The position numbers and the translations under genes were made by a program. The notes below the pieces were generated by a model. It saw only the letters and a list, made by a program, of their open reading frames with translations. It did not search any database and was not told the origin of the DNA. This document shows, one piece after another, positions 22,286-58,799 of a stretch of 63,638 nt of DNA (position 1 is its first letter; each line of letters starts with the position of its first letter). Location: contig JAHIEG010000001.1 in assembly GCA_018901655.1 (NCBI GenBank), positions 1-63,638 of the forward strand, given 5' to 3'. The stretch is from Nanobdellota archaeon (lineage in GTDB: Archaea > Aenigmatarchaeota > Aenigmatarchaeia > Aenigmatarchaeales > Aenigmatarchaeaceae).

Positions 22286-22317
22286 ATGTAAGTAAGGATG
22301 TGCAAACATTTCTGTGT
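22286..22317 (+). other. 5' arm of the 16S pre-rRNA processing stem (BHB)
   Basis: atgtaagtaaggatgt-gcaa-aca-tttctgtgt pairs with 25330-25361 to form a canonical BHB with a 16-bp outer helix. Confidence 0.9.
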
Positions 22318-23069
22318 TGTTACAGATAACCCGCAAAATTAATTCCGGTTGATCCCGCCGGAGATCACTGTTATCAGGTTTCGATTTAGCCATGCGAGGT
22401 GAGAGGGTTTAGACCCTCGCCGAACTGCTCAGTAACACGTAGTTAACTTACTCTTAGGTGGGGCATAAACTCGAGAAATTGAGGCTAATACCCCATAACT
22501 GTTTATAGCTGGAATGCTTTAACAGTAAAAGTTCCGACGCCTAAGAATAGGACTGCGGCGTATCAGGCTGTTGTGAGTGTAAAATACTCACAAACCTATA
22601 ACGCGTAGAGGCCATGAGAGTGGGAGCCTCGAGATGCCTTCTGAGACATGAAGGCAGGTCCTACGGGACGCAGCAGGCGCGAAAACTTTCCAATTCATTA
22701 ACGTGTGAGAAGGGAAGCCTGAGTGCTTATGCATTGCATAAGCTTTTCTTTAGCTTAAATCGCTAAAGGAATAAGTGGTGGGTAAGACAGGTGCCAGCCG
22801 CCGCGGTAATACCTGCGCCACGAATGGTGATCACGATTATTGGGTCTAGAGCGTCCGTAGCCGGTTTAGCAAGTTCCTGGTGAAATCTAACAGTAAACTG
22901 TTAGGCATGCTGGGAATACTATTAAACTTGAGATCGGGAGAGGTCGGAGGTAGTCCATGGGTAGGGGTTAAATCCTTTAATCCATGGAGGACCACCGGTG
23001 GCGAAGGCGTCCGACTGGAACGAGTCTGACGGTGAGGGACGAAAGCGTGGGGAGCAAAGCGGATTAGAT

Positions 23070-23815
23070 ATAAAAATGAGGAAACATTAAAAGCACAGAA
23101 ACCTTAATGTGACTATGTTAGAATTCCGGGTAAAACAGTTTTTGAAGAAAAATCAAGATATTAAAAAAATTGATAAACTGTTTACTTGTCGAGCATCACC
23201 ATATCAAATTAAGATTCCTATAAATATTTCAACAGATCTTTGTAGATTATTAGGAATAATACATGGTGATGGAAATCTTTCATCAAAGAGAATACATATT
23301 ACAGACAAATGTAAAGAATATCATACCAAGGAATTAAAACCTTTGTTTGAGAAATTATTTGGAATAAAGTTAAATCTCTATCATGATGTAAATAGGAATT
23401 CATACTATAGTCATATCAAAAGTAGTATCTTATATAGATATTTTATAGATGTTTTGGAATTACCAAAAGGTGCAGTTAGACAAAATTTGATTTTGCCAAG
23501 TTTTATGCAAAAATTAGAAAATAAATTTATTGCATCTTATATTGGAGGAGTATATGATGCTGAATCAAATATAAGCAAGAGGCAAGCTCAAATTAGTTTT
23601 TCAACAACTACAAAGCAAATATTTGATTTGGTTAAAAATTTTTTAATCATAAATAATATAAAATATAGTATCTATATAAGATCTCGAAGAATTAATAAAG
23701 AATATGAAATTTACATTTATGGAAAAGAAAATATTAGGAATTTTTTAAGATATATTAAAATATCACACCCAGAAAAAATTAAGCTTTTGAAAAGGTTTCT
23801 TCATTTTTACTAGAT
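23070..23815 (+). other. 16S intron 1 (746 nt, BHB), after about E. coli position 793
   Basis: Central helix ttag/ctag, bulges ata/ata, 15-bp terminal stem taaaaatgaggaaac/gtttcttcattttta; splicing restores GGATTAGATACCC. Confidence 0.92.
23109..23813 (+). CDS. Intron-encoded double-motif LAGLIDADG homing endonuclease
   Basis: RLLGIIHGDGNL and YIGGVYDAESNI motifs. Confidence 0.9.
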   Translation: MTMLEFRVKQFLKKNQDIKKIDKLFTCRASPYQIKIPINISTDLCRLLGIIHGDGNLSSKRIHITDKCKEYHTKELKPLFEKLFGIKLNLYHDVNRNSYYSHIKSSILYRYFIDVLELPKGAVRQNLILPSFMQKLENKFIASYIGGVYDAESNISKRQAQISFSTTTKQIFDLVKNFLIINNIKYSIYIRSRRINKEYEIYIYGKENIRNFLRYIKISHPEKIKLLKRFLHFY

Positions 23816-24004
23816 ACCCGTGTAGTCCACGCTGTAAACGATGTCCGCTTGATGTCACAAATCTTACGTGGATTTGTGGTGTCGGAGCGTAGGTGTTAAG
23901 CGGACCACCTGGGGACTACGACCGCAAGGTTGAAACTTAAGGGAATTGGCGGGGGAACACACAAGAGGTGGAGACTGCGGTTCAATTGGAGTCGACGCCG
24001 AGAA

Positions 24005-24605
24005 AAGAAAGCAACTATTATAAATATCAAACTTGGTAAATAATACCGGGATTGATATGGGTGTTTATCAAAAGTGTTTAAAAAACAAAGAACTTGCAGC
24101 AAATGTTCTTTTATCTTTGATTGAATTTGAATTTAGTTTGGTAAGTGACGATACGCCAACTTTGCTTCAATCACATGTCAATAAAGAACAATTAATTGCT
24201 GTATTCAGAATCTGTAAATCTCATAAATGGACAAAATTTAAGAAATTGAAACTTAAAGGCGAAAATTTTTATTTTCGTTTGACTATTGATGGATTAAAAG
24301 AAATATATGAGATAGCTGGTCCATTTGTTAGTAAAAAAAGAAATATGTGGACTAAATTAATTACAGAAAGGGCAGGAAAGAAAGGAGGATATATGAAAGA
24401 AATGCCTTCGACTGAAAAAAGAATCATCGATCTACTGCAAACGAATCATGACTGGTGGACAGTAGAAGGTGTATGTTTAAACTTAAGATTAACACCAAGT
24501 ACAATAAGAAAATCATTTAGAAAAATAGATAATAGTTTTATAGAAAGGAAAAAAATCGGAAGATCGGTTTTGTGGAAATTAAAATAATAGGTGTTTTCTC
24601 TCGAA
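24005..24605 (+). other. 16S intron 2 (601 nt, BHB), after about E. coli position 978
   Basis: Central helix cgag/ctcg, bulges aaa/aat, stem agaaagca/tgttttct; splicing restores GACGCCGAGAATCTCACC. Confidence 0.92.
24033..24587 (+). CDS. Intron-encoded protein: divergent LAGLIDADG-like domain plus C-terminal winged HTH
   Basis: LLSLIEFEFSL in the helix-1 position; C-terminal IIDLL...WTVEGVCLNLRLTPSTIRKSFRKI...IERKKIGRSVLWKL is wHTH-like. Confidence 0.6.
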   Translation: MVNNTGIDMGVYQKCLKNKELAANVLLSLIEFEFSLVSDDTPTLLQSHVNKEQLIAVFRICKSHKWTKFKKLKLKGENFYFRLTIDGLKEIYEIAGPFVSKKRNMWTKLITERAGKKGGYMKEMPSTEKRIIDLLQTNHDWWTVEGVCLNLRLTPSTIRKSFRKIDNSFIERKKIGRSVLWKLK

Positions 24606-25135
24606 TCTCACCAGGGTTGACAGTAGGATGAAGGTCAAGCTAATGGTCTTACCAGACAAGCTGAGAGGTGTTGCATGGCCATCGTCAGCTCGTACCTTGA
24701 GGCGTGCCGTTAAGTCGGTTAACGAGCGAGACCCACGCTATCATTTGCTACCATATTTTATCTTGGAGTAATCCAAAATGTAAATTATGAGCACTATGTT
24801 AGGACCGCCACTGATAAAGTGGAGGAAGGAGTGGGCAACGATAGGTCCGTATGGCCCGGATACCCTGGGCTACACGCGGTCTACAATGGTTAGGACAATG
24901 CGATGCAACTCCGAAAGGAGAAGCTAATCGCCTAAACCTAATCTTAGTCCGGATTGAGGATTGTAATTCATTCTCATGAAGCTGAAATCTCTAGTAAGCG
25001 AAAGTTAATATCTTTCGCTGAATATGTCCCTGTTCTTTGCACACACTGCCTGTCAAACCATGCGAATGGATTTTTGGTGAGGCTTTGCTTTAACAAAGTC
25101 GAGCCAGAGGTCTGTGAGTGGGGTTAAGTCATAAC

Positions 25136-25253
25136 AAAATACTCAGTAGAATTTTTCGATTATTCCTTAGTGAATGAAGAAAAGGCAGCAAGCTTAATGC
25201 TTGTACGAGGTGAAATGAAAGGAAGTAATTTTTCTTTGCTGGTATTTTATGAA
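25136..25253 (+). other. 16S intron 3 (118 nt, ORF-less, BHB), after about E. coli position 1501
   Basis: Central helix cata/tatg, bulges aca/aaa, stem aaatac/gtattt; splicing restores AAGTCATAACAAGGTAGCC. Confidence 0.9.
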
Positions 25254-25329
25254 AAGGTAGCCGTACTGGAAGGTGCGGCTGGATCACCTCCTATATTTTA
25301 TAATATAGATTATCCGGTGCTAGTTAATT

Positions 25330-25361
25330 ACACAGAAGTTGCATAACATCCTTACTTACAT
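25330..25361 (+). other. 3' arm of the 16S pre-rRNA processing stem (BHB)
   Basis: acacagaag-ttgc-ata-acatccttacttacat, complementary to 22286-22317. Confidence 0.9.
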
Positions 25362-25379
25362 TTGATAATTTTAAAAAAA

Positions 25380-26582
25380 TTATTTTGCAGATGAAACTAT
25401 TTCTATTACGTCTCTATTTTTTAAACGATATTCTCCTTTAATTTTCATTTTAGTTCTAACATCATATGCATATAATAGTCCTTTTGCAAGATCAGTATGT
25501 ATTTTATTTGCAAAATCCATTACAGTTGAACCTGGTTTCATTAGGAAAACATCTGGTAATATGTTTCCATTTTTATCGCCTAATCCTTTTATTCCTCCTG
25601 GAAATATTGCTATGTATTTTAAGAAATCAAATACAGAATCATCTAAAGTTGTTTGTACTCCTGTTGTTTTGTATTTTTCTAAAACATTTTTCTTAATAAA
25701 TTCTAAACCTTTTATTTGTTTTTCATTCATATCTTTATTTATTATTTCAAAAACTGCATCTCCTGGGTTATATTTAATCCATGTTTTTTTAGCTGCTTCT
25801 CTTAATGCTAGTTCTGATTCTGCTGAACATGGTTTGAAATAATAGTTTGGAAATTCTTTTTTTAATCTTTCATAATTTTCATGAGCTCCTGGGATATCAA
25901 TTTTATTACAAGCAATTAAGATTGGTTTTGTTCTTTTTCTTAACTCGGTTGCAATTTGTTTTAATTGTTCTTCTGTCCATTTAGTTGGATCGAGCTTTGG
26001 TATTTTTAGTTCTTCTAATACATCATCTATTAGTTCTGGTTTAACTCCAAATACATCTAATTGAATTGCTAATTGTTCTGAAATTTGAACTTCTTTGTCC
26101 TGATTCATTTTTCTTGATAATTTGTTCCATCCTTTTTTTAATACTCCTAGATACCACATATCTAATTCTATTTCTAAAAATCTTACATCATTGGCTGGAT
26201 CGTAAGAACCTGGCTTATCTAGTTCTCCTTTTTCATTAGCTGAACCAGAAATATCTATTACATGAATTAAAACATCTGCTCTATTAAGATCATTAAGAAA
26301 CTGATTACCAAGTCCTTTTCCTTCATATGCGCCTGGTACGAGTCCAGCTACATCTATTATTTCTACTGGTACATATCTTATTCCTTTTTCACAATATCCA
26401 GTTCTTGGATTACACTGTTTATTAAATTCTTTATCTACGCATTCAACTCTTACAAAACCTGTTCCGTGATTTGGTTTAATTGTTGTAAATGGATATGATG
26501 CTATTTCTACATTTATTAAAGTTGCTGCTTTAAAAAACGTTGATTTACCAGTTGATGGTTTACCAACTATACCTATTAACAT
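25380..26582 (-). CDS. ychF: Obg-family ATPase YchF (archaeal), with TGS domain
   Basis: GIVGKPSTGKSTFF, YPFTTI, DVAGLV.GA..G.GLGNQFL, NKID, C-terminal TGS. Confidence 0.95.
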   Translation of the reverse strand: MLIGIVGKPSTGKSTFFKAATLINVEIASYPFTTIKPNHGTGFVRVECVDKEFNKQCNPRTGYCEKGIRYVPVEIIDVAGLVPGAYEGKGLGNQFLNDLNRADVLIHVIDISGSANEKGELDKPGSYDPANDVRFLEIELDMWYLGVLKKGWNKLSRKMNQDKEVQISEQLAIQLDVFGVKPELIDDVLEELKIPKLDPTKWTEEQLKQIATELRKRTKPILIACNKIDIPGAHENYERLKKEFPNYYFKPCSAESELALREAAKKTWIKYNPGDAVFEIINKDMNEKQIKGLEFIKKNVLEKYKTTGVQTTLDDSVFDFLKYIAIFPGGIKGLGDKNGNILPDVFLMKPGSTVMDFANKIHTDLAKGLLYAYDVRTKMKIKGEYRLKNRDVIEIVSSAK

Positions 26583-26611
26583 ATTAGAAGTATTGAACTT
26601 AGATTATTAAA

Positions 26612-26905
26612 TCAATATGTTGGTTCTGAATTTACTTTTTTCATTAGTCGATCTATTTTTGAATCAATCCATTCTATTGTCTCATCTGTTGGTTCTGGAC
26701 CTGAAAATTTTACTGTTAGAATATTATTTTGATATGTGATACTTTGTAGAATATTTTCATTATGTTTTATTTCATCTGCTTTAAGATACCATATATATTC
26801 ATCTTCAATTAGATTGCTAATATCATAATTTTTAAGTATTATATGATATTCATGAAAACCCGGGTTTTCTATTACTTCTGCTTGTTCTAATGGATTATAT
26901 AACAT
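26612..26905 (-). CDS. Hypothetical protein
   Basis: 97-aa acidic ORF. Confidence 0.55.
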   Translation of the reverse strand: MLYNPLEQAEVIENPGFHEYHIILKNYDISNLIEDEYIWYLKADEIKHNENILQSITYQNNILTVKFSGPEPTDETIEWIDSKIDRLMKKVNSEPTY

Positions 26906-27011
26906 AATTATAATTAAAAATTAAAAGAATTTAAATGGTTAAAAATAATAGAACCCCCAAAGTCACACCAACTTGATGTATAAAATAACCTTAAGAATTA
27001 CAAAATTTTAT

Positions 27012-27290
27012 TTACTCATCTTCAGGTTTTTCTTCATCTTCAGATTCTTCGTTTGATTCTTCAACTTCTTCCTTTACTTCTTTTGTTTCTGTTGATTCAT
27101 CAGCTTTTTTGACTTTTGTTGCCATTGGACCTTTTTCACTTTGTGATTTTTCGAATTCTACTAGATCTCCTTCTTGTGGTGAATAATCTCCAATAACTTC
27201 ATTTTTGTGGAAAAACAAACCTCTTTTTTCACCAATATCGATGAAACCAAAGTTTTTGTCATCTAACCACTTTTCTATTTTTCCTTTCAT
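27012..27290 (-). CDS. Cold-shock domain protein with an acidic tail
   Basis: KGKIEKW...KNFGFI (RNP1), LFFH (RNP2), GPMATKV; strong SD aaggaggt. Confidence 0.93.
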   Translation of the reverse strand: MKGKIEKWLDDKNFGFIDIGEKRGLFFHKNEVIGDYSPQEGDLVEFEKSQSEKGPMATKVKKADESTETKEVKEEVEESNEESEDEEKPEDE

Positions 27291-27377
27291 AAATTAACCT
27301 CCTTAACATTGCGAACTTTAATTTTTAAGTTCACTGTGTGTTAATTGGTTATACACACTTTAAATAAGAAAGATTTA

Positions 27378-27420
27378 TGGTGGACTCAGGGGAATGTGAC
27401 TAAAAGGTACAAACCCCCTT
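27378..27420 (-). repeat. tRNA-Ala 3'-end-derived repeat R1 (att-like)
   Basis: Minus strand GGGGGTTTGTACCTTTTAGTCACATTCCCCTGAGTCCACCA; 25/28 identical to R2 over the core. Confidence 0.8.
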
Positions 27421-27421
27421 T

Positions 27422-30953: not shown

Positions 30954-30959
30954 TTTTGA

Positions 30960-32670: not shown

Positions 32671-32681
32671 AAACGCGATAT

Positions 32682-33483: not shown

Positions 33484-33610
33484 TGGACTCAGGGGGATTT
33501 TCACTCAATGTAAATTATACTATCAAGATTTGAACCCCCAACCCCTCGCTGTTCTGAAAACAAATTGTTTCTTGCAAAGCGAGTGCTCTACCAGGTTGAG
33601 CCATGAGCCC
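33484..33610 (-). tRNA. tRNA-Ala(UGC) with introns at 37/38 (33551-33572, 22 nt) and 59/60 (33498-33528, 31 nt)
   Basis: Spliced GGGCTCATGGCTCAACCTGGTAGAGCACTCGCTTTGCAAGCGAGGGGTTGGGGGTTCAAATCCCCCTGAGTCCA; G3:U70; both introns form BHBs (TTTG/CAGA and TTCA/TGAA). Confidence 0.93.
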
Positions 33611-33682: not shown

Positions 33683-33994
33683 TTATTTTTTGCTTAAAAC
33701 AATCTCTATACTAGAGACATTTAGTTTCTCGCCTTGATCGTTTGATACTTGTTCTGTACCTATGGTTACGTTTTTAATTATTGTATCTGTTACAAACTTG
33801 TTTCTAACTATTTCAGCTATATCGACAGCATGAGAAATTGCTCTTCCCCTCGCTCTTAATAGCACTTCTTTTTGTCCCTCGTTAAACTGTGTTACGCACG
33901 CTAGTACGTAGGACATTGCCGGTATAAAGATAAGTAAAATAAACAACTTTACTTAATTCTTCCCGACAAAGACCACATTGTCCATATCTGTCAT
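33683..33994 (-). CDS. albA: DNA/RNA-binding protein Alba, spliced: join(33957..33994, 33683..33923), 92 aa
   Basis: SD gaggtg before ATG 33994; spliced [29 protein letters not shown]...[23 protein letters not shown]. Confidence 0.92.
33924..33956 (-). other. 33-nt BHB-type intron in alba mRNA
   Basis: TTAAGTAAAGTTGTTTATTTTACTTATCTTTAT; 7-bp exon helix, 4-bp central helix, AUA and AAU bulges, 9-bp intron stem; contains an in-frame TAA. Confidence 0.85.
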
Positions 33995-36370: not shown

Positions 36371-36371
36371 A

Positions 36372-45884: not shown

Positions 45885-48800
45885 TTATTTCGCCTGTTTT
45901 TTAAACCATTCGAGCCACGAATTAAATACAATTTTAGGATCAACTTTTCCAACTTCAGACATTGATTCATTTGATAATTGGTGGAACATTTGATTTGTTT
46001 TTATCATTACAGGTGCTTCTAATAATTGTCTATTACCTGTTTTTCTTGAAATTTCAACCATTTTTTCAAGTATATCTGCTCTTAATTGAATGTTTTCCCA
46101 AACTAAATTCCATCTTCCTGCCCATCCAGGAACTCGTTTAGCAAGTTCATTTAAAATATAAGATTCGCCATTTAGCAAAGTATCAGTAGGTTTTAATTTA
46201 TCTTCTTCAGAAGAATATTCCATTAGGTTTACAAATCCTCCTTCTTCTGCTGGATCTTTTGTCCAATGTTTTCTAACCTCTGTAAGTTCAACAACTCTTC
46301 TAAAATTATGAACTCCATCAGCTGTTTTTAATCTATTACAAACTACAACAAAATCTGTTGCTTTAAAACTTGTTGGAGGAACACCTAGGTCGTTTACAAC
46401 TCTATCAAATACTCCATATGCAGATTCACCATGTATTGTACCAGCTACAACATTAGCTAATGCACCGATTCTCATTGCTTCATAAAGTGCTTTAGCTTCT
46501 GTATTATGAAGTAGCAATCCTCCAAATCCGCCAATAAATCTTTGAGTTGATTTTACTTCTAAATCATAAACATATTCAGGTTTTTTAAGATTGATAACAT
46601 CAATAAATTTTACTTTATCAACGAAAAAATCGCCATGGGCAAAATCATGCAATTCATCGCTGCACTTTACCTCTTCAGTTATTTTTTTCAAATAATCTTT
46701 TGAGCAACATTTTGTTTTTCTAAGATGCCTGTATTTTCTTGGCAATTTTAAATGATTTTCCAGTTCTTTTGGATCAAATGAAACCGAATCGTCTTTGCTA
46801 TGTGAAAACGATTTTGATGTTATAAGAGGATTTTTATGAGTAAATCCTATCTCATTTAAAAAACATTCAATATATCTTCTCTTTTTTATTTCTGCTGTAT
46901 AAAGAATTCTTTTTCCTTTTTTTCCAGGTTCTCTACTATGTAATCTACACACAATTTCTAGACATAATAAGGCATATGCAACATCTTCAACAAGTTTTTT
47001 TGATGTTGAAAAATATCTTATCATATCCCCAGCATTTTTTGTAGCTGAAAATGATCCATCACCACTGTACATCCCTCTTAATAAACTACATATTTTTCTT
47101 TTATTCAGCCCATAAAACATCTGTGGAATTCTTTTATGAAATGATGTTTTTCCACAACCAAGATAAATAAATAAATCAGAAAGCGGTTTACAGCATATAA
47201 ACATCTGTACTGAAGTTCCATATCCCTTTATTTGTCTTTGAGATATTTTTAATCCAAGTTCTTTTTTACAGATATCTTTAATATCTTCAATAATTTTTGC
47301 TTTTGAATTAGTTATTTGAATTTTATTTTTATCTATATTCCCCTCTGCTAAATAATAACCAATCAATCTTAATGTATTTTCATTTATTGGGAATCTTGCA
47401 GGAATGCTATTTGAAGTGCCTCTTTTTATTCTCAAATTATTTATATCATATTTTATTTTAGCTTTTTCCATCAACTCTAAAAATGAATTTATAGGAATTC
47501 TTGTTTTTTGCGTAGACAATAAATATCTGTAAATATCAGGAATTTTACATATTTTGCTTACATTTTTCCAACCAAGAACTTTAATTGCCTTTCTAATATA
47601 AGGTTCAGCATTTTCCAAGCGATAATCTTCTTTAAAAATTTCAAGAAGATTGATATAATCTATATCATTAAACCCACAAGGAATTTTTGAAGGAATTATT
47701 ATTGGGTCCCCTGCTTTTAATTTATCACTGTTTATAGCTGCTATTTTAAAATTAACATGAGTAAAAACACTATGATCAGGAGTAACAACAACCTCTCTTC
47801 CACTATTTGTGATAATCTTAATCAGTTTCTTTCTTTTTGGATGCTTTACAAAACCTGAAAGAGGCTTTAATTCCACTTTATTATCTTTAGTCAAAGTTGG
47901 AAGATTGAAAGATTTTATATCAATATTTTCAAAATCTTTAATAGGAAGTCTTTTTGTTATTCCCTTATCAACAACTACAACTTCTTGATCTCCTCTCAAA
48001 GAACTTCTTACTTCTCCTATAAACAAACATGAATCTCCTAATCTTAATGCAGTTCTTAATGCTTCTTCTGCTGGAAGTTCTGTTTCAATTTTAGTAATAA
48101 CAGATCTTGATTTCATTCTTTGAATATTATATCCTAATTTTCTTAACGCACTAACAGGTAATTCTAAAGTGTCCTCCACCGTAATCATTCTATAATATGG
48201 TAATATTTGCAACATCATTGAACCTAGAAGTGATGATTTACCTGAAGATCTTGTTCCTGCAACTAAAAATGTTCTTCCATATGATTCAGTAAACCACATT
48301 AAACCACCAAATAGTGGATCAAAATAACGAGTATCTATAAAGAGAGGAAATGTCCAAGGGTTATCTCTATGTCTTCTTAATGCAAAACCTAAACCATCTG
48401 GAGAAAGTTTTGGATTAATTGCCGCAACTCTTGCTATTCCACCTGGAACCATTAGTTCAGTATCTAAAACTGGATTAGCTTCATCAAGTGGTCGTCCAGA
48501 TAATAATTTAAAACGAGTACTCCATCTTTCTGCATCTTGTTTTGTTGGAACTAAATTTGTTTCGCATTCTCCGTAGTCCTGATGATTAATATAAATTGGA
48601 ATATTACCAAGTGGTGAATTAATGTAAATATCTTCTATTTTATTATCTGCTAAAAGTAATTCTATTATTCCTAAACCTGCAGTATATCTTGTAAGTATTC
48701 CAGAAAGTTTTGTAATTTGAGAAGAACCAATTGGTATATCCATTTGATCAGATAAATCAGTTAATAAATCAACTGATAATGTATAAAATAATTCTCTCAT

Positions 48801-49616
48801 CTTTTCCTGTTCAGTAATTTCTAATTCTTTTGGTCTTCTTTCTTCTAATATTCTTCTTGCCCCATCTAATAGTGTGTACTCGTTTTCTCCCAATTTAAAT
48901 TCTGGTGGAATAACATGATAAATATGTCTTATTTTTCCAGGAATTCTATATATTTCAACTTTAGAATCTCCTACTGAATATTTTTCTATAAGCTCTCCTT
49001 CTGGTCGTTGAGACATATACTTCGTGTACATGAAATTTGGCCTAATTGTTGGCTTAAAAATTCTTCTATAAATTGTTCTATCTCCAGCATGATAAGCTGT
49101 TAAACTTGGTCTTGCAATTTGAATTAATTTACACTCGTCTAAAATATCCTGAATTGGTAATAATGAATTTTCTAAAAAGTATTGTATACATTCTGCATGT
49201 TCTGAAGAATTCATCATCTTTGTTTTAAGATGTCTAATTTCTCTTGTTAAAGATAAATATGCTCCTATTGGATCTCCTCTCATTTGTAAAGCCATTAAAT
49301 CTTGAATCCAAGAATACCATTTTGGAATGTATGCTTCACAAGATTTGCTTCCTATTTTTTTAATAGATATTAACTTTTCTTCTTTTATGATTTTATTTAT
49401 TGCTTCAGCAATTTCTTTCAAATATGTTGTTTGAAGAGTATCATATTCATATTCCCTGGTTTCAGCAAGAATAATATCAGTTACTTTCTTATTAACTATC
49501 AAAGAACCTATTACCCTAGCCATTACAACATCAGAATCTTCTAAAGTAAATCCAAAAATAGAGCCAATACAGTTCATTCTCATTATTCCATCATTTACTT
49601 CTATCTCAAAAACCAT
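45885..49616 (-). CDS. Type II/IV secretion/pilus assembly ATPase (VirB11/ArlI/TadA family), intein-containing
   Basis: AGTRSSGKSSLL, TVEDTLEL, ALRLGDSCLFIGEVRS|TEA, GTIHGES. Confidence 0.95.
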   Translation of the reverse strand: MVFEIEVNDGIMRMNCIGSIFGFTLEDSDVVMARVIGSLIVNKKVTDIILAETREYEYDTLQTTYLKEIAEAINKIIKEEKLISIKKIGSKSCEAYIPKWYSWIQDLMALQMRGDPIGAYLSLTREIRHLKTKMMNSSEHAECIQYFLENSLLPIQDILDECKLIQIARPSLTAYHAGDRTIYRRIFKPTIRPNFMYTKYMSQRPEGELIEKYSVGDSKVEIYRIPGKIRHIYHVIPPEFKLGENEYTLLDGARRILEERRPKELEITEQEKMRELFYTLSVDLLTDLSDQMDIPIGSSQITKLSGILTRYTAGLGIIELLLADNKIEDIYINSPLGNIPIYINHQDYGECETNLVPTKQDAERWSTRFKLLSGRPLDEANPVLDTELMVPGGIARVAAINPKLSPDGLGFALRRHRDNPWTFPLFIDTRYFDPLFGGLMWFTESYGRTFLVAGTRSSGKSSLLGSMMLQILPYYRMITVEDTLELPVSALRKLGYNIQRMKSRSVITKIETELPAEEALRTALRLGDSCLFIGEVRSSLRGDQEVVVVDKGITKRLPIKDFENIDIKSFNLPTLTKDNKVELKPLSGFVKHPKRKKLIKIITNSGREVVVTPDHSVFTHVNFKIAAINSDKLKAGDPIIIPSKIPCGFNDIDYINLLEIFKEDYRLENAEPYIRKAIKVLGWKNVSKICKIPDIYRYLLSTQKTRIPINSFLELMEKAKIKYDINNLRIKRGTSNSIPARFPINENTLRLIGYYLAEGNIDKNKIQITNSKAKIIEDIKDICKKELGLKISQRQIKGYGTSVQMFICCKPLSDLFIYLGCGKTSFHKRIPQMFYGLNKRKICSLLRGMYSGDGSFSATKNAGDMIRYFSTSKKLVEDVAYALLCLEIVCRLHSREPGKKGKRILYTAEIKKRRYIECFLNEIGFTHKNPLITSKSFSHSKDDSVSFDPKELENHLKLPRKYRHLRKTKCCSKDYLKKITEEVKCSDELHDFAHGDFFVDKVKFIDVINLKKPEYVYDLEVKSTQRFIGGFGGLLLHNTEAKALYEAMRIGALANVVAGTIHGESAYGVFDRVVNDLGVPPTSFKATDFVVVCNRLKTADGVHNFRRVVELTEVRKHWTKDPAEEGGFVNLMEYSSEEDKLKPTDTLLNGESYILNELAKRVPGWAGRWNLVWENIQLRADILEKMVEISRKTGNRQLLEAPVMIKTNQMFHQLSNESMSEVGKVDPKIVFNSWLEWFKKQAK
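46503..48002 (-). mobile_element. 500-aa intein with LAGLIDADG endonuclease just after the Walker B motif
   Basis: Starts SLRGDQEV (Ser1), ends LLLHN, +1 Thr; blocks LIGYYLAEG and LLRGMYSGDG. Confidence 0.93.
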
Positions 49617-49687
49617 GAAATCACTTATATTTTATATATACTCCGATATTAATATATTAAGTAACCCATATAATAGTTTGTGATTAA

Positions 49688-50866: not shown

Positions 50867-50961
50867 TTTAATTTCTTACAATTTAGAGAGGTATTCCCCT
50901 GCACTTGGTATGGTATATAGAAAAGTCATAAAATCGCAGTAAAGAATCAGTGATATATTAT

Positions 50962-51513: not shown

Positions 51514-51514
51514 T

Positions 51515-52018: not shown

Positions 52019-52055
52019 GTTATCACTTTAGTTTATGTTGTTTATGTATATAAGA

Positions 52056-52568: not shown

Positions 52569-53168
52569 TTAACCACCTAACTCTTCTATTGCACGTTTTA
52601 GTTGTTGTTCTTCATCTAATTTTTGACTATAAAGTGCTTTTAAAGTTGCCATTGTTCGTCTATCATTTGCTATCTTTGCAGCTCTCATATCATCATCTAG
52701 TCTTTTAAGTGTTTTTCTTGTATAAGTTAATTGATCTTCAAGTGCGTCAATTTCTTTACCTTTATTTGCTTTTTTACCAACACTTTCAAACCCTTTTGAT
52801 ATTAATCCACTTGTAACTTTTCCAGCTGCTGGATGCCAAATTACACTTATGAAAAATACTATAAAGGCTAATACTAGTACTATAGTAAACCAACCTGTTA
52901 AGAGTGGTATTAATATTGATCCATACCAACCTCCCCAAACTATGAAAATATAAGTAATAATTTGAAACAGATAAGAAAATCCTTTATGTTCTCCAACTAT
53001 TCTCAAAACAGTTCCTTTAGATACAGCATAAATAAACATAAGTAAAATTACATGAGGAATCAAAATCAGATATAATAATTGGTCTGGAACTGTAGTATAT
53101 TTAGCTATAATAGAAGGATCTATCTTTAGCAAAGTTTCAAAAATTAATGTAAATACATTAAATGCCAT
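52569..53168 (-). CDS. Multi-TM membrane protein with a C-terminal coiled coil
   Basis: Three hydrophobic helices, then a UVR-like hairpin (RAAKIANDRRTMATLK). Confidence 0.75.
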   Translation of the reverse strand: MAFNVFTLIFETLLKIDPSIIAKYTTVPDQLLYLILIPHVILLMFIYAVSKGTVLRIVGEHKGFSYLFQIITYIFIVWGGWYGSILIPLLTGWFTIVLVLAFIVFFISVIWHPAAGKVTSGLISKGFESVGKKANKGKEIDALEDQLTYTRKTLKRLDDDMRAAKIANDRRTMATLKALYSQKLDEEQQLKRAIEELGG

Positions 53169-53204
53169 ACAGATTTATTAGAAGTTCTAATATTTAAAAT
53201 AAAA

Positions 53205-53768
53205 TTAAGCATATGCGAGATCTTTTTCAAGATTATAACTTCCTGTTTCATCCACTAGTACATGTGCCAATTCATATATGCCTTCATTCAACTCTTTATT
53301 TTCTTCATCTTCTTTCAAAAGTATTTTTTGTAAAACTTGTTGATATTGTTCAGTTCTTGTGCTATCAATATCTTTTAATATATCTTTTATATATTTTACA
53401 CTTGCCCCTCTTCCATTAGAATAACCTTCATAAATAGCTGTAATTGGACTAACTGCTCTACCTATTAAACCCCTAACATCTAAAGTAGAACACATTTCCC
53501 AAAACATTGCTGGCTGTCCACCAGGTAAATAATTACTAACTAATCCATCAACAAGACTACCTTCACCAGTAGTACTATTAAATGGTCTTAAAGCATCAGT
53601 TAATTGTGAAGAAAATGTTTTTTTCTGTCTTTCAAGTAATCCCATTTTTTCAAATGCATTATAAACAGTATCTACAGGTCCTTCCATATGAGGCAATTCT
53701 CCATATTTACCTCCATACATTGCATTCCTTATTGCTTCTGATAATTGTTGTGGATTAAGTTCGCTCAT
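53205..53768 (-). CDS. Hypothetical protein
   Basis: 187-aa soluble ORF with its own promoter element B1. Confidence 0.7.
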   Translation of the reverse strand: MSELNPQQLSEAIRNAMYGGKYGELPHMEGPVDTVYNAFEKMGLLERQKKTFSSQLTDALRPFNSTTGEGSLVDGLVSNYLPGGQPAMFWEMCSTLDVRGLIGRAVSPITAIYEGYSNGRGASVKYIKDILKDIDSTRTEQYQQVLQKILLKEDEENKELNEGIYELAHVLVDETGSYNLEKDLAYA

Positions 53769-53803
53769 ACTTATATTTACTACTAGATAGTATATAAGTC
53801 TAT
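53766..53803 (-). promoter_or_regulatory. 38-bp leaderless promoter with internal palindrome, copy B1
   Basis: catacttatatttactactagatagtatataagtctat; 37/38 identical to 55763-55800. Confidence 0.75.
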
Positions 53804-53813
53804 GCTTTTTTCA

Positions 53814-54068
53814 CTAGATTCGCTCTTCGACAGAAAATATACCTAAATCAAGACAAAGTTCATATATGCTCCACGACCAGATTACAGCTTCAAATGCTCG
53901 AACATAATCTTTTTGTTCAATAAAATGTTTTGCATCTGAAATATAGGCTTTCATATTAATAAAAAGTGATCCACCTTTAGTATCAAAATATTCTATCTTT
54001 TTTACAATTGGTTCAATTCGTTCTAACCACTTATGTGTCTCTGCAATCAAAACTTCTTCTGTGTTCAT
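53814..54068 (-). CDS. DUF357-family protein
   Basis: MKAYISDAKHF.EQKDYV.AFEAV.WSW; usual neighbour of dph5. Confidence 0.85.
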   Translation of the reverse strand: MNTEEVLIAETHKWLERIEPIVKKIEYFDTKGGSLFINMKAYISDAKHFIEQKDYVRAFEAVIWSWSIYELCLDLGIFSVEERI

Positions 54069-54772
54069 AAAATCTCCAAAAACTCTTTTTCCTTAAAATG
54101 TAATTTACCTGGTAATATTAAAATAGATGGTGTTTCTATATCTTTTTCAATAAGTTCAGAAACTGTTTTATAAAAAATATCATCTCCAATTTTACCTGCT
54201 ATCATTTTAGTTGATCTAGTTACTAATTTATTATCTAATAATAACTTTAAAGCATTTTTAACAGGCATGTAAATATTCATTTCAGCATCTAAGTCTAATA
54301 ATAATAAAGTATGTAATCCTAATTTCTTATTACCTTCTATAGCGTCTTTAACAGATTCAAGTTTTCCAGAATATGGAATGGTAGCTGTTCGACCCATTTT
54401 ATACAATTGCAATCCAGTTTCTCCTATTGCTGAAAATATAGAAGTATTATGAATTATCTCAACTCTGATTCCTTGGGACCTTGCTTCTAAAACAAGATCA
54501 GCATGTGTTGTCGCTGCGAGTGGATCTCCTAATACGAAAAGTGCTACATGGTTTTTTTTGCATTTTTCTAAAAATTGTTTTTGATTATCTTCTAAATCAC
54601 TTCTTCTTAACTGTTTAATCTCTTTACCAACCATTCTTTCAAGATTTCTTAAATCACCTGACCATTTAGAAGTATAAGTTTCAATAAAACAATCACATGT
54701 TTTAGCTACTTCAACTCCTTTAAGTGTGATTCCTTTCTCATCACTAATTCCTAATCCTATCAAATAAAGCAT
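54065..54772 (-). CDS. dph5: Diphthine synthase
   Basis: LYLIGLG, ETYTS, GDPLAATTH, HNTSI, GLHTLLLLD. Confidence 0.95.
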   Translation of the reverse strand: MLYLIGLGISDEKGITLKGVEVAKTCDCFIETYTSKWSGDLRNLERMVGKEIKQLRRSDLEDNQKQFLEKCKKNHVALFVLGDPLAATTHADLVLEARSQGIRVEIIHNTSIFSAIGETGLQLYKMGRTATIPYSGKLESVKDAIEGNKKLGLHTLLLLDLDAEMNIYMPVKNALKLLLDNKLVTRSTKMIAGKIGDDIFYKTVSELIEKDIETPSILILPGKLHFKEKEFLEIL

Positions 54773-54844
54773 AGAATAAATTACAAATTAAAGTATAAAA
54801 GTTTAGATATTATAAATTCCAAATGGATTTACAACCATGAAAAT

Positions 54845-55765
54845 CTAACATTTTGGTGGCGGAATTATATTCGCCCACTTCTTTGGATCTATCACATCAT
54901 TTTTCAATGCAGGCATCTTGTGAACTCTTCCAATAGCTTCTAAAGTTTCTGTTCCATTAAGTATGGTTTGTATCTGCTGATTTGGGATTCCTATTATTCT
55001 ACATCTACTTATAAGATCGCTATAAAAACGATCATAATAGATTGCACTTTTTCCAGATAAACAATATTTAAAATCTACTATTGCTTGTCCAATTTCAGTA
55101 TCCCACGAATTGAGTGATCCTTCTACCATACATATTCCTGGTGCTATTGGTAATGTATATGCTTGCTGAAAAGTACCCTTTTCTTCTAAAAATGAGGTTA
55201 AATCACTTGTTGCAAGTTTATGTAAAATTTTATCAAATTGCTTATCATATCTATCAAAATAAAGCACTATTTTATTAGTAGCATCGGCGGATCTACCGTC
55301 TTCTCTAGACCATTCACCAACATGATGTAATTTAATTTGACCACCTAATCCTTGACACGATTCAAATATTTCTTTAATTGCTTTTTTGGGTGCGTCTCCA
55401 CTCATTCCACCCATGTCGGGAGAAATATATATTCTTATCAAATCCTCTGTCAAGAAATTTGAGCCAAAAACATAACATGGGCCAGTCATCATACCGAAAG
55501 AGTTGGCATTAGTTCTTTTTGCAATTTCGGTTGTGTATTTATAAATATCATTTTCAAAATTTGCTAAAGCTAATGGACGAGGAGGACCTGCTGTTCTGTC
55601 TGTATCAAATTTCTGATATAATTTTTTTCCAACAACTTCTAACTCTTCATAATCAAATTGCTTAATTGTTTCTCTGACTTCTCTATAACTAACACTGGGA
55701 TCTTCAAACCATGAAAGGATCTCTAGATCTCGTATATCGTCCATAGGACTATCATGATATGACAT
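54845..55765 (-). CDS. Hypothetical protein with a HopA1-effector-like domain
   Basis: RIYISP...DATNKIVLYFD...YTLPIAPGICMVE resembles the R.Y.N / D..VLY / FTK.LAPG.G.AE pattern, recalled from memory. Confidence 0.5.
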   Translation of the reverse strand: MSYHDSPMDDIRDLEILSWFEDPSVSYREVRETIKQFDYEELEVVGKKLYQKFDTDRTAGPPRPLALANFENDIYKYTTEIAKRTNANSFGMMTGPCYVFGSNFLTEDLIRIYISPDMGGMSGDAPKKAIKEIFESCQGLGGQIKLHHVGEWSREDGRSADATNKIVLYFDRYDKQFDKILHKLATSDLTSFLEEKGTFQQAYTLPIAPGICMVEGSLNSWDTEIGQAIVDFKYCLSGKSAIYYDRFYSDLISRCRIIGIPNQQIQTILNGTETLEAIGRVHKMPALKNDVIDPKKWANIIPPPKC

Positions 55766-55800
55766 ACTTATATTTACTACTAGGTAGTATATAAGTCTAT
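55763..55800 (-). promoter_or_regulatory. 38-bp leaderless promoter with internal palindrome, copy B2
   Basis: catacttatatttactactaggtagtatataagtctat. Confidence 0.75.
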
Positions 55801-55837
55801 CTATATAGTTAAATAAAGAGTAAACACAATTTAATTT

Positions 55838-56551
55838 ATGGTTTACGAGATTATCGGAAGCAAAGAAAAGGCAGTAGCTATTATTGGGTTCGGAACTGAA
55901 AACATAAAGGAATTAGCTGAAAAGATAATGAAACAACATAAAAATGTTAAATCTGTTTTAGCTAAAACTGGTCAAAGAGAAGGAGTATTTAGAACTCATC
56001 CAACTAAACTTATTCTAGGTGATAAGAACACTGAAGTGATTCATAAAGAAAATGGATATTCAATTAAAATCGATCCAAGAATTGCTTATTTCTCACCTAG
56101 AGAATCAACTGAACGATTAAGATTAAGTAAAATGATTAAAGCTGGAGAAAAGATTCTTGTGATGTTTTCTGGCGTGTCGCCAATTGCTATAGCTATTAAG
56201 AAAGTTCAACCCGATTGTAAAATAACATGTATTGAAATTAATCCAGAAGCTGTAAAATACGCTGATGAAAATGTTAAACTAAACAAGATATGTGGAATCA
56301 AGAATATATGTGGCGATGTGAGGGAAGTTAAATTAGAAAAATATGACAGAATTATTATGCCTTTACCAGAGACGTCTTTAGAGTATTTAGACTTAGCTAA
56401 GAAACATTGTAAAGGAATAATTCATCTATATGGATTTGCTAAAGACCCGAAGGAGATAACAAGTAAGATAGAAGATAAAATAATTAAGATACAAAGAGTA
56501 TTACCTTATGGTCCTGGAATTTACAAAATGAGATTTGATATCGAAATCTAA
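55838..56551 (+). CDS. Trm5/Taw2 (Met-10+) family tRNA-37 modification enzyme
   Basis: IHKENG...ID....YFSPR..TER; VMFSGVSP; EINPEA; IIMPLP. Confidence 0.88.
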   Translation: MVYEIIGSKEKAVAIIGFGTENIKELAEKIMKQHKNVKSVLAKTGQREGVFRTHPTKLILGDKNTEVIHKENGYSIKIDPRIAYFSPRESTERLRLSKMIKAGEKILVMFSGVSPIAIAIKKVQPDCKITCIEINPEAVKYADENVKLNKICGIKNICGDVREVKLEKYDRIIMPLPETSLEYLDLAKKHCKGIIHLYGFAKDPKEITSKIEDKIIKIQRVLPYGPGIYKMRFDIEI

Positions 56552-56665
56552 CTAATCTACACTATATTCTTTTTTTAGGATTCTTCTAAACTGTGGACTT
56601 CCATCTTCTGCTCCAGTTCTAAGTGTATAAAATCTTGGTTCCATTTCTTCATCTGGTCTTAACAT
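56552..56665 (-). CDS. Possible 37-aa small protein
   Basis: MLRPDEEMEPRFYTLRTGAEDGSPQFRRILKKEYSVD fills the gap between the two Trm5-like genes. Confidence 0.25.
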   Translation of the reverse strand: MLRPDEEMEPRFYTLRTGAEDGSPQFRRILKKEYSVD

Positions 56666-56689
56666 AATTTAATTAACATAGGAAAGAAT

Positions 56690-57484
56690 TTAAACCTTCT
56701 TTAAATCATAAACCATGTGCCATACATTCGGTGAATATGATTTAACCTTTCTTGTCCTCAAAACTTTAACTTGTTTTGGAAACTTAATTTCTTCTCCATC
56801 TCTAACGTTACGATGGAAATGAATAATCGCTCCTTTTTTAGCTATTTTCAACGCGCTTGGTAAGAAGTTTTCAGTATCATAAAGATGTCCCATAACAATT
56901 CTATTAGCCGTGTTCTCAAGCAAGCTAGCGAAATCTCTACAATCTCCTTCTAATATCTCAATTTTATTTTCAACTTTATTAAGAAAAGAATTTCGTTTAA
57001 GATATTTAATTGCATCTGGATTCAAATCAATTGAATAAACTTTCTTAGCTTTTTTAGCTAATAGAATTGAAAAATATCCTATGCCTGCAAACATGTCAAC
57101 AACTATCTCACTCGACTTAACAGATTTAATCATTATCTCCTTTTCCATTTTATTTCCTTTAGACCACATTACTTTAGTCACATCTAAAAAGAATTTAGCA
57201 CCATGTTCTTTGTGAATAGTTTCAGTATTTTTAGATCCAGCAATTACTTCCATCTTTGGTTTTCGTTTAACTCCGTCTATACTTCGTTCAAGAACAACGG
57301 TTTCAATATATGGTAATATTTCTAAAATGGCTTTTCCAATTTTCTTTCTATGTTTGTATAATTCTGGTTTTAATTTAACTATGAGTATCTTACCAAGAAT
57401 AAAGTAAGACCTCGGGGCTAATCGAAGGTCTTGAGAAGGAATATTATCTTTTAGATTGTCTATAAGTTTTGTATAAAACGACAT
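56690..57484 (-). CDS. Trm5/Taw2 (Met-10+) family tRNA-37 modification enzyme, second paralogue
   Basis: TIHKEHG..F.LDVTKVMWSKGN..EK; DMFAGIGYF; DLNPDA; ANRIVMG. Confidence 0.9.
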   Translation of the reverse strand: MSFYTKLIDNLKDNIPSQDLRLAPRSYFILGKILIVKLKPELYKHRKKIGKAILEILPYIETVVLERSIDGVKRKPKMEVIAGSKNTETIHKEHGAKFFLDVTKVMWSKGNKMEKEIMIKSVKSSEIVVDMFAGIGYFSILLAKKAKKVYSIDLNPDAIKYLKRNSFLNKVENKIEILEGDCRDFASLLENTANRIVMGHLYDTENFLPSALKIAKKGAIIHFHRNVRDGEEIKFPKQVKVLRTRKVKSYSPNVWHMVYDLKKV

Positions 57485-57618
57485 AATTCTTTATGTTCTC
57501 TTGCATATTAAATATTATACTCATTGGTAAACACCGGGCTTTTTATCACCATATATTCCCTTCAATTCTTTAGGATTTAGTACAACATATCTAATTTCTT
57601 TTTTCTCTTCCATTATAA

Positions 57619-57756
57619 TCACATTAAATTTATCACATCTTGAGGATTATGTGTTTCATAGGTTCCCCCCCGATTACTAATTATATATGTTTCTAATCCA
57701 CCAATTAATTTTGATTCTATTGTTTCACCATTTTTTCCTTTGTATTCCCCAGGCAT
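57619..57756 (-). CDS. Small hypothetical protein (45 aa)
   Basis: SD gaggtg 7 nt before the ATG; MPGEYKGKNGETIESK... Confidence 0.4.
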   Translation of the reverse strand: MPGEYKGKNGETIESKLIGGLETYIISNRGGTYETHNPQDVINLM

Positions 57757-57827
57757 TTTTCTTCACCTCATGAACATAATAAAAAAGGGGGAGGGGTCGT
57801 TAAAAGTGACAATACATGTGAAATTCC

Positions 57828-58208
57828 TTACATGTATTTAATTGATCCTGCTTTCCAGATTGCTTCTATTGCTAGAATTGCAACTGCTGGTGCTGCTAAT
57901 ACTGCAATGTGTCCAACGATTGGTGCTAAGTAGTCACCCACGTATGGTACACCTGCTAATACAGCTCCAGATGCTCCTACTGCCATCAAAGCGATTGCAG
58001 CAAGCATGAAAATTTCTATATCATCTTTTCCGATTGATCCCATGCCAAATGCTCCTAACAAACCTACTACAAATCCTAACACCACTAATAGTGTTCCTGC
58101 TGAAGGTATTGTTCCAACCATCAATCCCTCTATTACTGCGATTAACATTCCTAGTAGGAATAGATAGCCACTGAGCTTTATCCATTGATTTCCTTGTTTT
58201 TTTGCCAT
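57828..58208 (-). CDS. Small Gly/Ala-rich four-TM membrane protein
   Basis: GYLFLLGMLIAVIEG...FMLAAIAL...VPYVG..LAAPAVAILAIEAI; SD aggtga; C/T-rich terminator downstream. Confidence 0.8.
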   Translation of the reverse strand: MAKKQGNQWIKLSGYLFLLGMLIAVIEGLMVGTIPSAGTLLVVLGFVVGLLGAFGMGSIGKDDIEIFMLAAIALMAVGASGAVLAGVPYVGDYLAPIVGHIAVLAAPAVAILAIEAIWKAGSIKYM

Positions 58209-58253
58209 ATTTTTTCTCACCTTTGAGCATAATAGTAAAGGGGCTAGTGGGGC

Positions 58254-58529
58254 CTACTTAAAGACCCCTAATAAAACAAATACAACACCAATTAAGGTGA
58301 CTAATAAACCGATTACGCTAAACAATGTCGTTCCCCATGTTACAGCACTTCCTATTGAAATTGCTGATCCAATTCCTAAATTAAATGCTGCAGCAAGTAA
58401 ATACGATGCACCACCTGCACCTAACCATATAAATCCTTTGTCGCCTTTCTTTTTAATTTTTCCATATTCTGCTAAAATTGGGGCTAATAGCAATGCGATT
58501 CCCATCCATACGAATGTTGCTTCAAACAT
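58254..58529 (-). CDS. Small Gly/Ala-rich three-TM membrane protein
   Basis: Start at MFEATF after SD aggtga; three hydrophobic helices. Confidence 0.75.
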   Translation of the reverse strand: MFEATFVWMGIALLLAPILAEYGKIKKKGDKGFIWLGAGGASYLLAAAFNLGIGSAISIGSAVTWGTTLFSVIGLLVTLIGVVFVLLGVFK

Positions 58530-58689
58530 TTTTTCACCTAATAGAAAGGTGGTAAAATTTGTTCTTAAAGGTAGCTTCGACAATCGTATTACTTCTCTCA
58601 AATATAGAAATCTTTATATATTATTAATTTGTGTATATAACACCCTTATAGAAATAAATTATATTTTTCTAGATAATTTATATAAAAGT

Positions 58690-58799
58690 TGGTAGCGGGG
58701 GCACGATTTGAACGTGCGACCCCTGGGTTATGAGCCCAGTGAGCACTCCAGGCTGCTATAGGCAATCTAGTTCGCTAAAACAAAGACTTCCACCCCGCT
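58690..58799 (-). tRNA. Initiator tRNA-Met(CAU) with a 32-nt intron at about 10/11 (58758-58789)
   Basis: Spliced AGCGGGGTGGAGCAGCCTGGAGTGCTCACTGGGCTCATAACCCAGGGGTCGCACGTTCAAATCGTGCCCCCGCTACCA; A1:U72, three G:C pairs in the anticodon stem, A11:U24. Confidence 0.92.

Follow-up and report, generated by a model that had tools for sequence, protein, structure and literature searches.

Bulge-helix-bulge introns in protein, tRNA and rRNA genes of an Aenigmatarchaeota genome and their association with LAGLIDADG endonuclease genes

Introduction

How do introns of the tRNA type come to interrupt ribosomal, transfer and messenger RNAs alike within a short stretch of one small genome, and what keeps or moves them there? 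This question is raised by a 63,638-nucleotide (nt) stretch of DNA (contig JAHIEG010000001.1 of assembly GCA_018901655.1), referred to here as the window, from a mesophilic groundwater archaeon of the Aenigmatarchaeota (DPANN), whose genome (G000 in our comparisons) amounts to 0.66 Mb and is 84% complete. A sequence-only reading of the window had recognised seven bulge-helix-bulge (BHB) introns, three in 16S rRNA, two in tRNA-Ala, one in the initiator tRNA and one in alba, together with a BHB in the 16S processing stem, and had proposed that a splicing endonuclease and ligase of broad specificity allow short introns to spread by reverse splicing in a DPANN lineage. We followed up these proposals across the genome and in 40 relatives (labelled G001-G040), among which G009, a member of the same family, was compared as a whole genome. 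We propose that the elements are genuine BHB introns, which would be spliced by the endonuclease EndA and the ligase RtcB, and that they are spread or kept at the DNA level through homing by LAGLIDADG endonucleases, an account that we regard as rather probable.

Results

BHB introns of the window

All eight elements, the seven introns and the processing stem, were found where the sequence-only reading had placed them (Table 1). The lineage is indeed DPANN, and the short introns, described as 22-33 nt, measure 22, 31, 32 and 33 nt. Motifs were scored as a 4-bp central helix (H) with a 3-nt bulge 3' of the helix on each strand, splice pairs being scored with the cut placed after the second bulge nucleotide. 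The central helix is 4 bp in seven of the seven introns, each with two 3-nt bulges on opposite strands and at least one flanking helix. The strict hBHBh' motif is seen in both tRNA-Ala introns and in a sec61-beta intron described below; the 16S introns, the tRNAi-Met intron and a minD intron, also described below, are of the HBh' class; and the alba motif is hBH, with the inner helix shifted by 1 nt. A chance origin of the window motifs is excluded, because each excision brings back conserved tRNA, rRNA or protein sequence.

The alba intron

The gene alba is present in a single copy. A tblastn search with Sso10b revealed an 11-codon, TAA-bearing insert between GK and PAMSY, the removal of which gives an Alba reading ...VFVGKK^PAMSYVLA... 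(^ marks the junction; predicted spliced RNA GGGAAGAA^ACCGGC), and the Pfam Alba profile matches the spliced product at 1.6e-20 over positions 1-65, spanning the junction. The BHB consists of a 7-bp exon helix, a GAAG/CUUU central helix, a 3' bulge AUA and an inner hairpin of 8-9 bp offset by 1 nt; the 5' bulge AAU faces one extra U, which makes the motif relaxed. Among 35 alba hits in the 40 relatives, 30 run uninterrupted through the intron site. The same codon is interrupted in the same phase in G001 (33 nt), G006 (30 nt), G011 (34 nt) and G039 (31 nt), by inserts that are unalignable or barely alignable, and the intron, 33 nt long here, spans five genomes and two families, G039 belonging to the other family. 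An in-frame peptide insertion is excluded, since inserts of 31 and 34 nt would shift the frame. A GUUG(C/A)GGC loop (GUUGCGGC-type) is common to the introns of G011, G039 and G006, and the alba intron is therefore old and homologous.

Covariation was counted in the five genomes on the fixed-length outer 28 nt, comprising the outer and central helices; a MAFFT alignment of the whole intron region was dropped in favour of this count, its 3' side being mis-registered. The helix is paired in 98.2% of 55 cells, with two-sided changes in four of 11 pairs. Only one of 500 shuffles scored as high, and slid registers were 35-55% paired with zero compensatory change. Even the synonymous third positions of the Val and Pro codons covary (C-G, U-A, A-U, U-A, G-C). 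From these comparisons of sequences, the alba intron is very probably real. Relatives with an intron-less alba (L004-L031) retain pairing between the third positions of the Val and Pro codons, which form the exon helix, in 12 of 21 cases (Watson-Crick in 10), and the intron-less alba of G009 has the exact GUCGG/CCGGC of the window gene; this leftover pairing may be the footprint of recent intron loss.

Introns in other protein genes

A homology scan, in which all G009 open reading frames (ORFs) were compared by tblastn with this genome and the reverse, and which is not biased toward 5' ends, returned three short inserts with stop codons, and no more, in this genome: those of alba, minD and sec61-beta. 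The minD intron (C5) is 30 nt long, has an HBh' motif and lies inside GKGGVG^KT; its excision restores GKGGVGKT, with a predicted junction GTCGGAA^AAACC. The intron of sec61-beta (C6 6649-6700), also 30 nt, has a strict hBHBh' motif with h = 7, and the Pfam Sec61_beta profile crosses the junction (predicted as GGACTAG^TTCGC) in the spliced product MAGLVRYYDEDK. In G009, uppS (C6) contains a 21-nt HBh' intron, excision of which restores DGNRRWA. Interrupted coding sequences are thus found beyond alba, and the heavy load that the sequence-only reading had suspected extends beyond the window, with about 25 tRNA genes interrupted and six rRNA inserts genome-wide. None of the 40 relatives searched has either the minD or the sec61-beta insert, and both are therefore recent gains. 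All four introns start at a similar distance after the start codon: 38 nt in alba, 46 in minD, 52 (or 46) in sec61-beta and 49 in uppS. The G011 orthologue of minD (C48:1652-2389) matches only from residue 9, within a 735-aa open frame, which points to a large in-frame element, either an intein or a fused endonuclease, at the P-loop that the mini-intron splits in this genome.

A genome scan for BHB structure alone yielded 3.66 million candidates with H = 4 and 360 ORF-joining hits, nearly all of them false; alba ranked second, and minD and sec61-beta were missed or buried. The top hit (C19 14512-14578) has a junk exon 2 and is probably a terminator hairpin. Split tblastn matches at C17 18135-18178 and in C1 of G009 fall in intergenic regions or antisense frames and are not introns, and the split tail of nrdD (C5), with a stop, a Shine-Dalgarno sequence and an ATG and with no BHB, is a true two-gene arrangement.

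The coding-sequence inserts might instead be the marks of pseudogenes, assembly errors, translational bypassing or a downstream start. In-frame stops inside the inserts agree with such a view, as does an 87-aa ORF that begins at a TTG within the alba insert; moreover, among sequencing runs the locus was found in DNA metagenomes and in no RNA run, the DNA contigs showing the intron-bearing allele only, plus the tRNA-Ala of a second organism. However, a public run reproduces the assembly contig exactly, the single-copy alba retains protein-level conservation of exon 1 in five genomes, and the 31- and 34-nt inserts break the frame while the helices covary. The same motif recurs in three unrelated essential genes, and bypassing would call for matched take-off and landing codons, of which there are none. 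We consider this explanation extremely improbable.

LAGLIDADG genes beside interrupted genes

A profile search found 13 LAGLIDADG ORFs in the genome, including inteins, rRNA-intron ORFs and free-standing genes. The free-standing genes have a marked neighbourhood: one (C5 7016-7915) lies directly upstream of minD, a second (C2 3342-4136) directly upstream of the interrupted tRNA gene at 4166, a third (C17 46458-47111) overlaps the interrupted tRNA-Ile gene at 47091, and a fourth (C1 14275-15201) lies directly upstream of the interrupted tRNA gene at 15296. Four of five free-standing genes thus adjoin an interrupted gene (chance P ~1e-5). A similar association is seen across relatives. Among 30 alba loci, a LAGLIDADG ORF occurs only in G001 and G011, both intron-bearing, and immediately upstream of alba in each; none was found at the approximately 25 intron-less alba loci. 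The two proteins are orthologues (53% identity, E = 3.5e-74), and comparison with the intron-less G012 shows that the endonuclease gene sits inserted in the pilin-alba spacer. In G009, a LAGLIDADG gene overlaps the start of uppS. The alba-type endonuclease has one clear orthologue (that of G011), the G040 homologue being distant and free-standing, with no intron visible next to it.

In G011, the frame of the LAGLIDADG ORF that precedes alba (L030 734-1702, - strand) continues through alba exon 1 and ends at the stop codon inside the alba intron, after ...RGETKMTENADNIVFVGKNF. Translation of the unspliced RNA would give the endonuclease with a tail from exon 1 of Alba, and the spliced RNA could encode a fusion. 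In the window itself, the SRP54 gene (9168-12284, + strand) contains an intein with a LAGLIDADG domain within the GTPase domain, and a T2SSE/FlaI-type ATPase gene (45888-49631, - strand) contains an intein of ~496 aa. The two inteins and the rRNA-intron endonuclease show that the genome is rich in homing elements.

It can also be supposed that the introns are passive relics of an intron-rich Aenigmatarchaeota ancestor, subject to losses only and without ongoing mobility, and that the endonuclease genes are unrelated neighbours. The age of the alba intron, homologous across two families with a common loop, its patchiness (five of ~35 genomes) and the possible loss footprint in intron-less alba genes all suit this supposition. 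By contrast, the sec61-beta and minD introns, present in one of 41 genomes, would need dozens of independent precise losses; three 16S introns and three 23S inserts are absent from G009; and the endonuclease adjacency is far above chance, with orthologous genes beside alba in G001 and G011. Passive inheritance appears unlikely to us.

Splicing enzymes

EndA is encoded by one ORF of 179 aa (C18, L001 1474-2013, - strand), matched by both PF01974 and PF02778. No second paralogue was found by phmmer or profile in this genome, where the absence is provisional at 84% completeness, or in G009, and the enzyme is presumably an alpha4 homotetramer. Its closest solved relative is the catalytic subunit of Nanoarchaeum. 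A Lys-rich insert, GVKPMKKGPKQEQEH, between the catalytic Tyr and His aligns with GVIP-KKGKRSEREH of NEQ (3IEY) and GAKPIKEN--NEWIH of ARMAN-2 (4FZ2), and is conserved in all Aenigmatarchaeota homologues. This insert has been named the L3 loop, and L3-bearing alpha4 EndA is found in several DPANN lineages with heavy tRNA gene disruption (Kaneta 2018, PMC5829648); the literature links the loop of DPANN/Nanoarchaeum-type EndA to relaxed substrates as well as to this disruption. The RtcB gene is present and intact. Both enzymes invoked by the sequence-only reading are thus encoded, and the loop suggests a broad specificity of EndA.

The catalytic triad of EndA is not complete. Tyr and His are kept, and the position of Lys156 in M. 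jannaschii is occupied by Ala (AHNIRAN versus AHSVRKK). In 14 aligned Aenigmatarchaeota sequences this position is Ala, Ser or Thr, and it is Lys in Woesearchaeota, Crenarchaeota, Thaumarchaeota and Heimdallarchaeota. The Lys-rich loop (KKGPK, before His) may supply a relocated catalytic lysine, by analogy with the CSL/ASL lysines, for which such a supply has been proposed (PMC12397907).

tRNA and rRNA introns

Rfam identifies 33 tRNA loci genome-wide and aragorn one more. After in-silico splicing, nine tRNA genes are intron-less and ~25 of 35 are interrupted (about 70%), the latter carrying at least 29 introns, approximately half of which lie at position 37/38 and the others at 9-11, 29-32 and 59/60. 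Intron-less tRNAs recognised by aragorn number 12 here versus 27 in G009. CCA is not encoded at the 3' end of the window tRNA-Ala (33484), where discriminator A is followed by CTT; it is encoded in nearly all other tRNA genes of the genome and in the G001 orthologue of tRNA-Ala.

In 16S rRNA, the Rfam match covers 2.8 kb of DNA for a 1.48-kb archaeal model. It ends at 25159 because intron 3 interrupts the gene, the true 3' end, ...GGATCACCTCCT, being read from the sequence at 25292. Excision of introns 1, 2 and 3 rejoins GGATTAGAT^ACCC, GCCGAGAA^TCTCACC and GTCATAAC^AAGGTAGCC, respectively, and rebuilds invariant 16S segments; the 16S gene of G009 is uninterrupted at all three sites. The ORF in intron 1 belongs to the LAGLIDADG family. 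That in intron 2 has no match in Pfam or the PDB and only a weak one in NCBIfam (Sta1, E = 0.018), and its single-sequence AlphaFold2 model (pLDDT 53) is too poor for a fold search. The processing stem, with a 16-bp helix, a GCAA/TTGC central helix, bulges ACA and ATA and a 9-bp helix, is a canonical BHB. Elsewhere in the genome, 23S rRNA carries three inserts relative to G009, of which that of 865 nt has a good BHB; a quick scan found no clean BHB register for the ~187-nt and ~140-nt inserts.

Table 1. Positions of the BHB introns and associated features. Coordinates refer to the window unless preceded by C22.
Feature	Position	Strand	Remarks
Pre-16S processing stem, 5' strand	22286-22317	+	Helix ATGTAAGTAAGGATGT, central GCAA, bulge ACA, helix TTTCTGTGT; read from sequence
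16S rRNA gene	22342-25292	+	Rfam RF01959, 1067 bits
16S exons	22342-23069, 23816-24004, 24606-25135, 25254-25292	+	
16S intron 1	23070-23815 (746 nt)	+	After ~E. coli 793; TTAG/CTAG central helix, bulges ATA/ATA, 10-bp inner helix
LAGLIDADG ORF in 16S intron 1	23109-23813 (234 aa)	+	Pfam LAGLIDADG_3, E = 3e-11
16S intron 2	24005-24605 (601 nt)	+	After ~E. coli 978; CGAG/CTCG central helix, 8-bp inner helix
ORF in 16S intron 2	24033-24587 (184 aa)	+	Family not assigned; C-terminal 60 residues weakly winged-helix-like
16S intron 3	25136-25253 (118 nt)	+	No ORF; after ~E. coli 1501; CATA/TATG central helix, 7-bp inner helix
Pre-16S processing stem, 3' strand	25330-25361	+	ACACAGAAG, central TTGC, bulge ATA, ACATCCTTACTTACAT; read from sequence
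tRNA-Ala(UGC) gene	33484-33610	-	G3:U70, two introns; recognised by aragorn after both excisions
tRNA-Ala intron 1	33551-33572 (22 nt)	-	Canonical position 37/38; strict hBHBh', H4 h5 h'6
tRNA-Ala intron 2	33498-33528 (31 nt)	-	T-loop 59/60; strict hBHBh', H4 h5 h'6
alba gene	33683-33994	-	Exon 1 33957-33994 (38 nt), exon 2 33683-33923; spliced product 92 aa
alba intron	33924-33956 (33 nt)	-	In-frame TAA; relaxed BHB
tRNAi-Met gene	58690-58799	-	A1:U72, CAU, CCA encoded; partial Rfam match; recognised by aragorn after excision
tRNAi-Met intron	58758-58789 (32 nt)	-	D-arm position 10/11; HBh', GGGU/GCCU, 5-bp inner helix
23S rRNA	C22 ~10134-14468	-	Three inserts relative to G009
23S insert, ~187 nt	C22 10788-10974	-	
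23S insert, 865 nt	C22 11394-12258	-	Good BHB; 260-aa LAGLIDADG ORF
23S insert, ~140 nt	C22 13736-13875	-	

This collection of introns bears on the route proposed by the sequence-only reading, in which excised BHB introns would be re-inserted into tRNA, rRNA and mRNA by the reversed action of endonuclease and ligase. Fixation would then come about via reverse transcription and recombination, and the short introns would multiply as mobile elements at the RNA level. The presence of RtcB and of an EndA of the broad-specificity type, the occurrence of introns in all three RNA classes and the apparently recent gain of the sec61-beta and minD introns would all be accommodated by it. Yet no related pair, and hence none of the near-identical copies envisaged in that reading, was found at different loci when ~29 introns were compared by blastn all against all and with the genome, the best matches being AT-rich words of 8-12 nt, and no RVT_1 (PF00078) match was obtained at E <= 1, an absence that is provisional in an 84%-complete genome. 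Neither the 5' clustering nor the endonuclease adjacency is predicted by this route. Furthermore, the 3' end of each intron is the exact complement of the last nucleotides of its own exon, and a transplanted intron RNA would therefore not rebuild a BHB. Reverse splicing thus appears very improbable as the means of spread. The closeness of alba to the doubly interrupted tRNA-Ala, estimated at about 70 nt in the same reading and amounting to 72 nt between the alba stop and the tRNA-Ala start, reflects conserved synteny, found also beside intron-less alba genes, and fails as a cause. The only intron-related similarity that we found is a 17-nt identity across the intron-exon boundary of tRNA-Leu(CAA) (C1 17387-17485) and tRNA-Leu(UAA) (C21 30392-30442), which fits the duplication of an already interrupted gene.

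Discussion

The account that we favour, splicing by host enzymes combined with homing at the DNA level, is built on the motifs, the restored sequences, conservation and covariation, the presence of both enzymes and the endonuclease adjacency. We propose that EndA would cut each RNA within the two 3-nt bulges and that RtcB would join the exons, which in alba would remove the TAA and recreate GKK^PAMSY. The LAGLIDADG endonucleases, encoded either inside large rRNA introns or by free-standing genes just upstream of the target gene, would recognise a region that the mini-intron splits 38-52 nt into that gene, and homing would co-convert the endonuclease gene and the mini-intron together. The distance of the introns from the start codon is what would be expected if an endonuclease encoded just upstream had its target site at the position of the intron. 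Later decay of the endonuclease gene would leave orphan mini-introns, and it can be surmised that the alba intron of the window, that of G039 and the sec61-beta intron are such orphans. This proposition has a precedent in the 16S rRNA of Pyrobaculum oguniense, where the endonuclease of intron Pog.S1213 co-converts the neighbouring hairpin intron Pog.S1205 (PMC4496867).

At its most specific, this hypothesis sees new introns in protein and tRNA genes as the product of a two-part mobile element, composed of a free-standing LAGLIDADG gene inserted just ahead of a conserved gene and a BHB mini-intron of 21-34 nt, with host splicing by a lysine-relocated alpha4 EndA and RtcB making the interruption harmless and with orphans remaining after endonuclease decay. 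We put it forward tentatively, as a possibility somewhat short of an even chance. If it is true, an observable and ongoing route of mRNA-intron gain in archaea would be at hand.

Several points weigh against the account of splicing and homing. No endonuclease gene adjoins alba here, alba in G039 or sec61-beta here, and free-standing endonuclease genes stand without a visible neighbouring intron once in G040 and twice in G009. The motifs of alba and minD are relaxed and not strict. The canonical catalytic lysine is missing from EndA, so that the activity and specificity of the enzyme are predictions, and the absence of a second subunit is provisional. The origin of the mini-intron sequence lies outside the homing model. 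Splicing itself is deduced from the sequences, and we likewise infer both the breadth of EndA specificity and homing.

Introns of the tRNA type are very rare in archaeal protein genes, and at least three protein genes contain them in a single 0.66-Mb DPANN genome, with a fourth in a relative. Taken at face value, these sequences would show that, in one archaeal lineage at least, mRNAs are routine substrates of the tRNA-splicing machinery and that such introns can be gained over short evolutionary time scales, and the position and neighbours of the introns suggest a concrete mechanism of gain. An EndA without the canonical lysine represents a natural experiment on the rebuilding of a splicing-endonuclease active site. 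In practical terms, gene callers will truncate or split the intron-bearing genes, and 16S primers at 785/806, 968 and 1492 will not work in the lineage.

Comparison with known systems

The closest known parallel at protein genes is the BHB intron of cbf5 pre-mRNA in Crenarchaeota, which is short and patchy through gain and loss (Watanabe 2002; Yoshinari 2006; Yokobori 2009, PMC2738675). The introns described here are likewise short, located in protein genes, patchily distributed and predicted to depend on the tRNA splicing endonuclease and ligase for their removal; in both cases EndA has an extra loop, which in the cbf5 lineages gives broad specificity. They differ in that the host belongs to DPANN and not to TACK, and in that EndA is a one-gene enzyme with an L3 loop instead of an alpha2-beta2 enzyme with a Crenarchaea-specific loop (CSL). 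Unlike cbf5, the hosts are alba, minD, sec61-beta and uppS, with several genes affected per genome, the distance between start codon and intron is 38-52 nt throughout, and several introns stand beside free-standing LAGLIDADG genes.

Archaeal rRNA introns with BHB motifs and LAGLIDADG proteins are well described, as in the 23S rRNA of Desulfurococcus (I-DmoI) and the 16S rRNA of Thermoproteales (Jay and Inskeep 2015, PMC4496867). The first 16S intron and the 865-nt 23S insert are of this kind, and of the three 16S loci, 978 is among the 13 listed; ~793 and ~1501, in our own numbering, are not, and the host is a mesophilic groundwater DPANN archaeon and not a thermophilic crenarchaeon. The short, ORF-less hairpin intron that would ride with a neighbouring endonuclease resembles Pog.S1205, but the endonuclease genes here are free-standing upstream of tRNA and protein genes and not located in a second intron, as in Pyrobaculum.

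Multiple non-canonical tRNA introns together with a loop-bearing EndA are known from Thermoproteales, Nanoarchaeum, ARMAN and other DPANN (Fujishima 2011; Hirata 2012, PMC3488258; Kaneta 2018). As in the tRNAs of those lineages, introns occur at 10/11, 29-32 and 59/60 besides 37/38, with relaxed HBh' motifs, and as in the DPANN of Kaneta 2018 an alpha4-type EndA with an L3 loop accompanies increased disruption of tRNA genes. Aenigmatarchaeota were not among the genomes analysed in that study, and the EndA found here differs by having no Lys at the canonical catalytic position.

The proposed pairing of an intron with a free-standing endonuclease also has a likeness outside the archaea. Such collaborative homing was reportedly described in T-even phages by Bonocora and Shub and by Zeng in 2009; the intron is said to protect its carrier and to be co-converted. 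In these phages, a free-standing homing endonuclease gene likewise lies by its target gene, and the cleavage site is split by an endonuclease-less intron. There, however, the introns are self-splicing group I introns with GIY-YIG or HNH enzymes, whereas here they are protein-spliced BHB mini-introns of 21-34 nt with LAGLIDADG enzymes, the cleavage specificity of which is a prediction.

In the literature searched, BHB introns in mRNA are described only for cbf5, and neither Aenigmatarchaeota nor the genes alba, minD, sec61-beta and uppS appear in this connection. The BHB kind of intron, rRNA-intron homing and the L3-loop EndA were already known; what is new is the identity of the host genes and the number affected per genome, the 5' clustering of intron positions, and the arrangement of a free-standing endonuclease gene with a mini-intron at protein genes.

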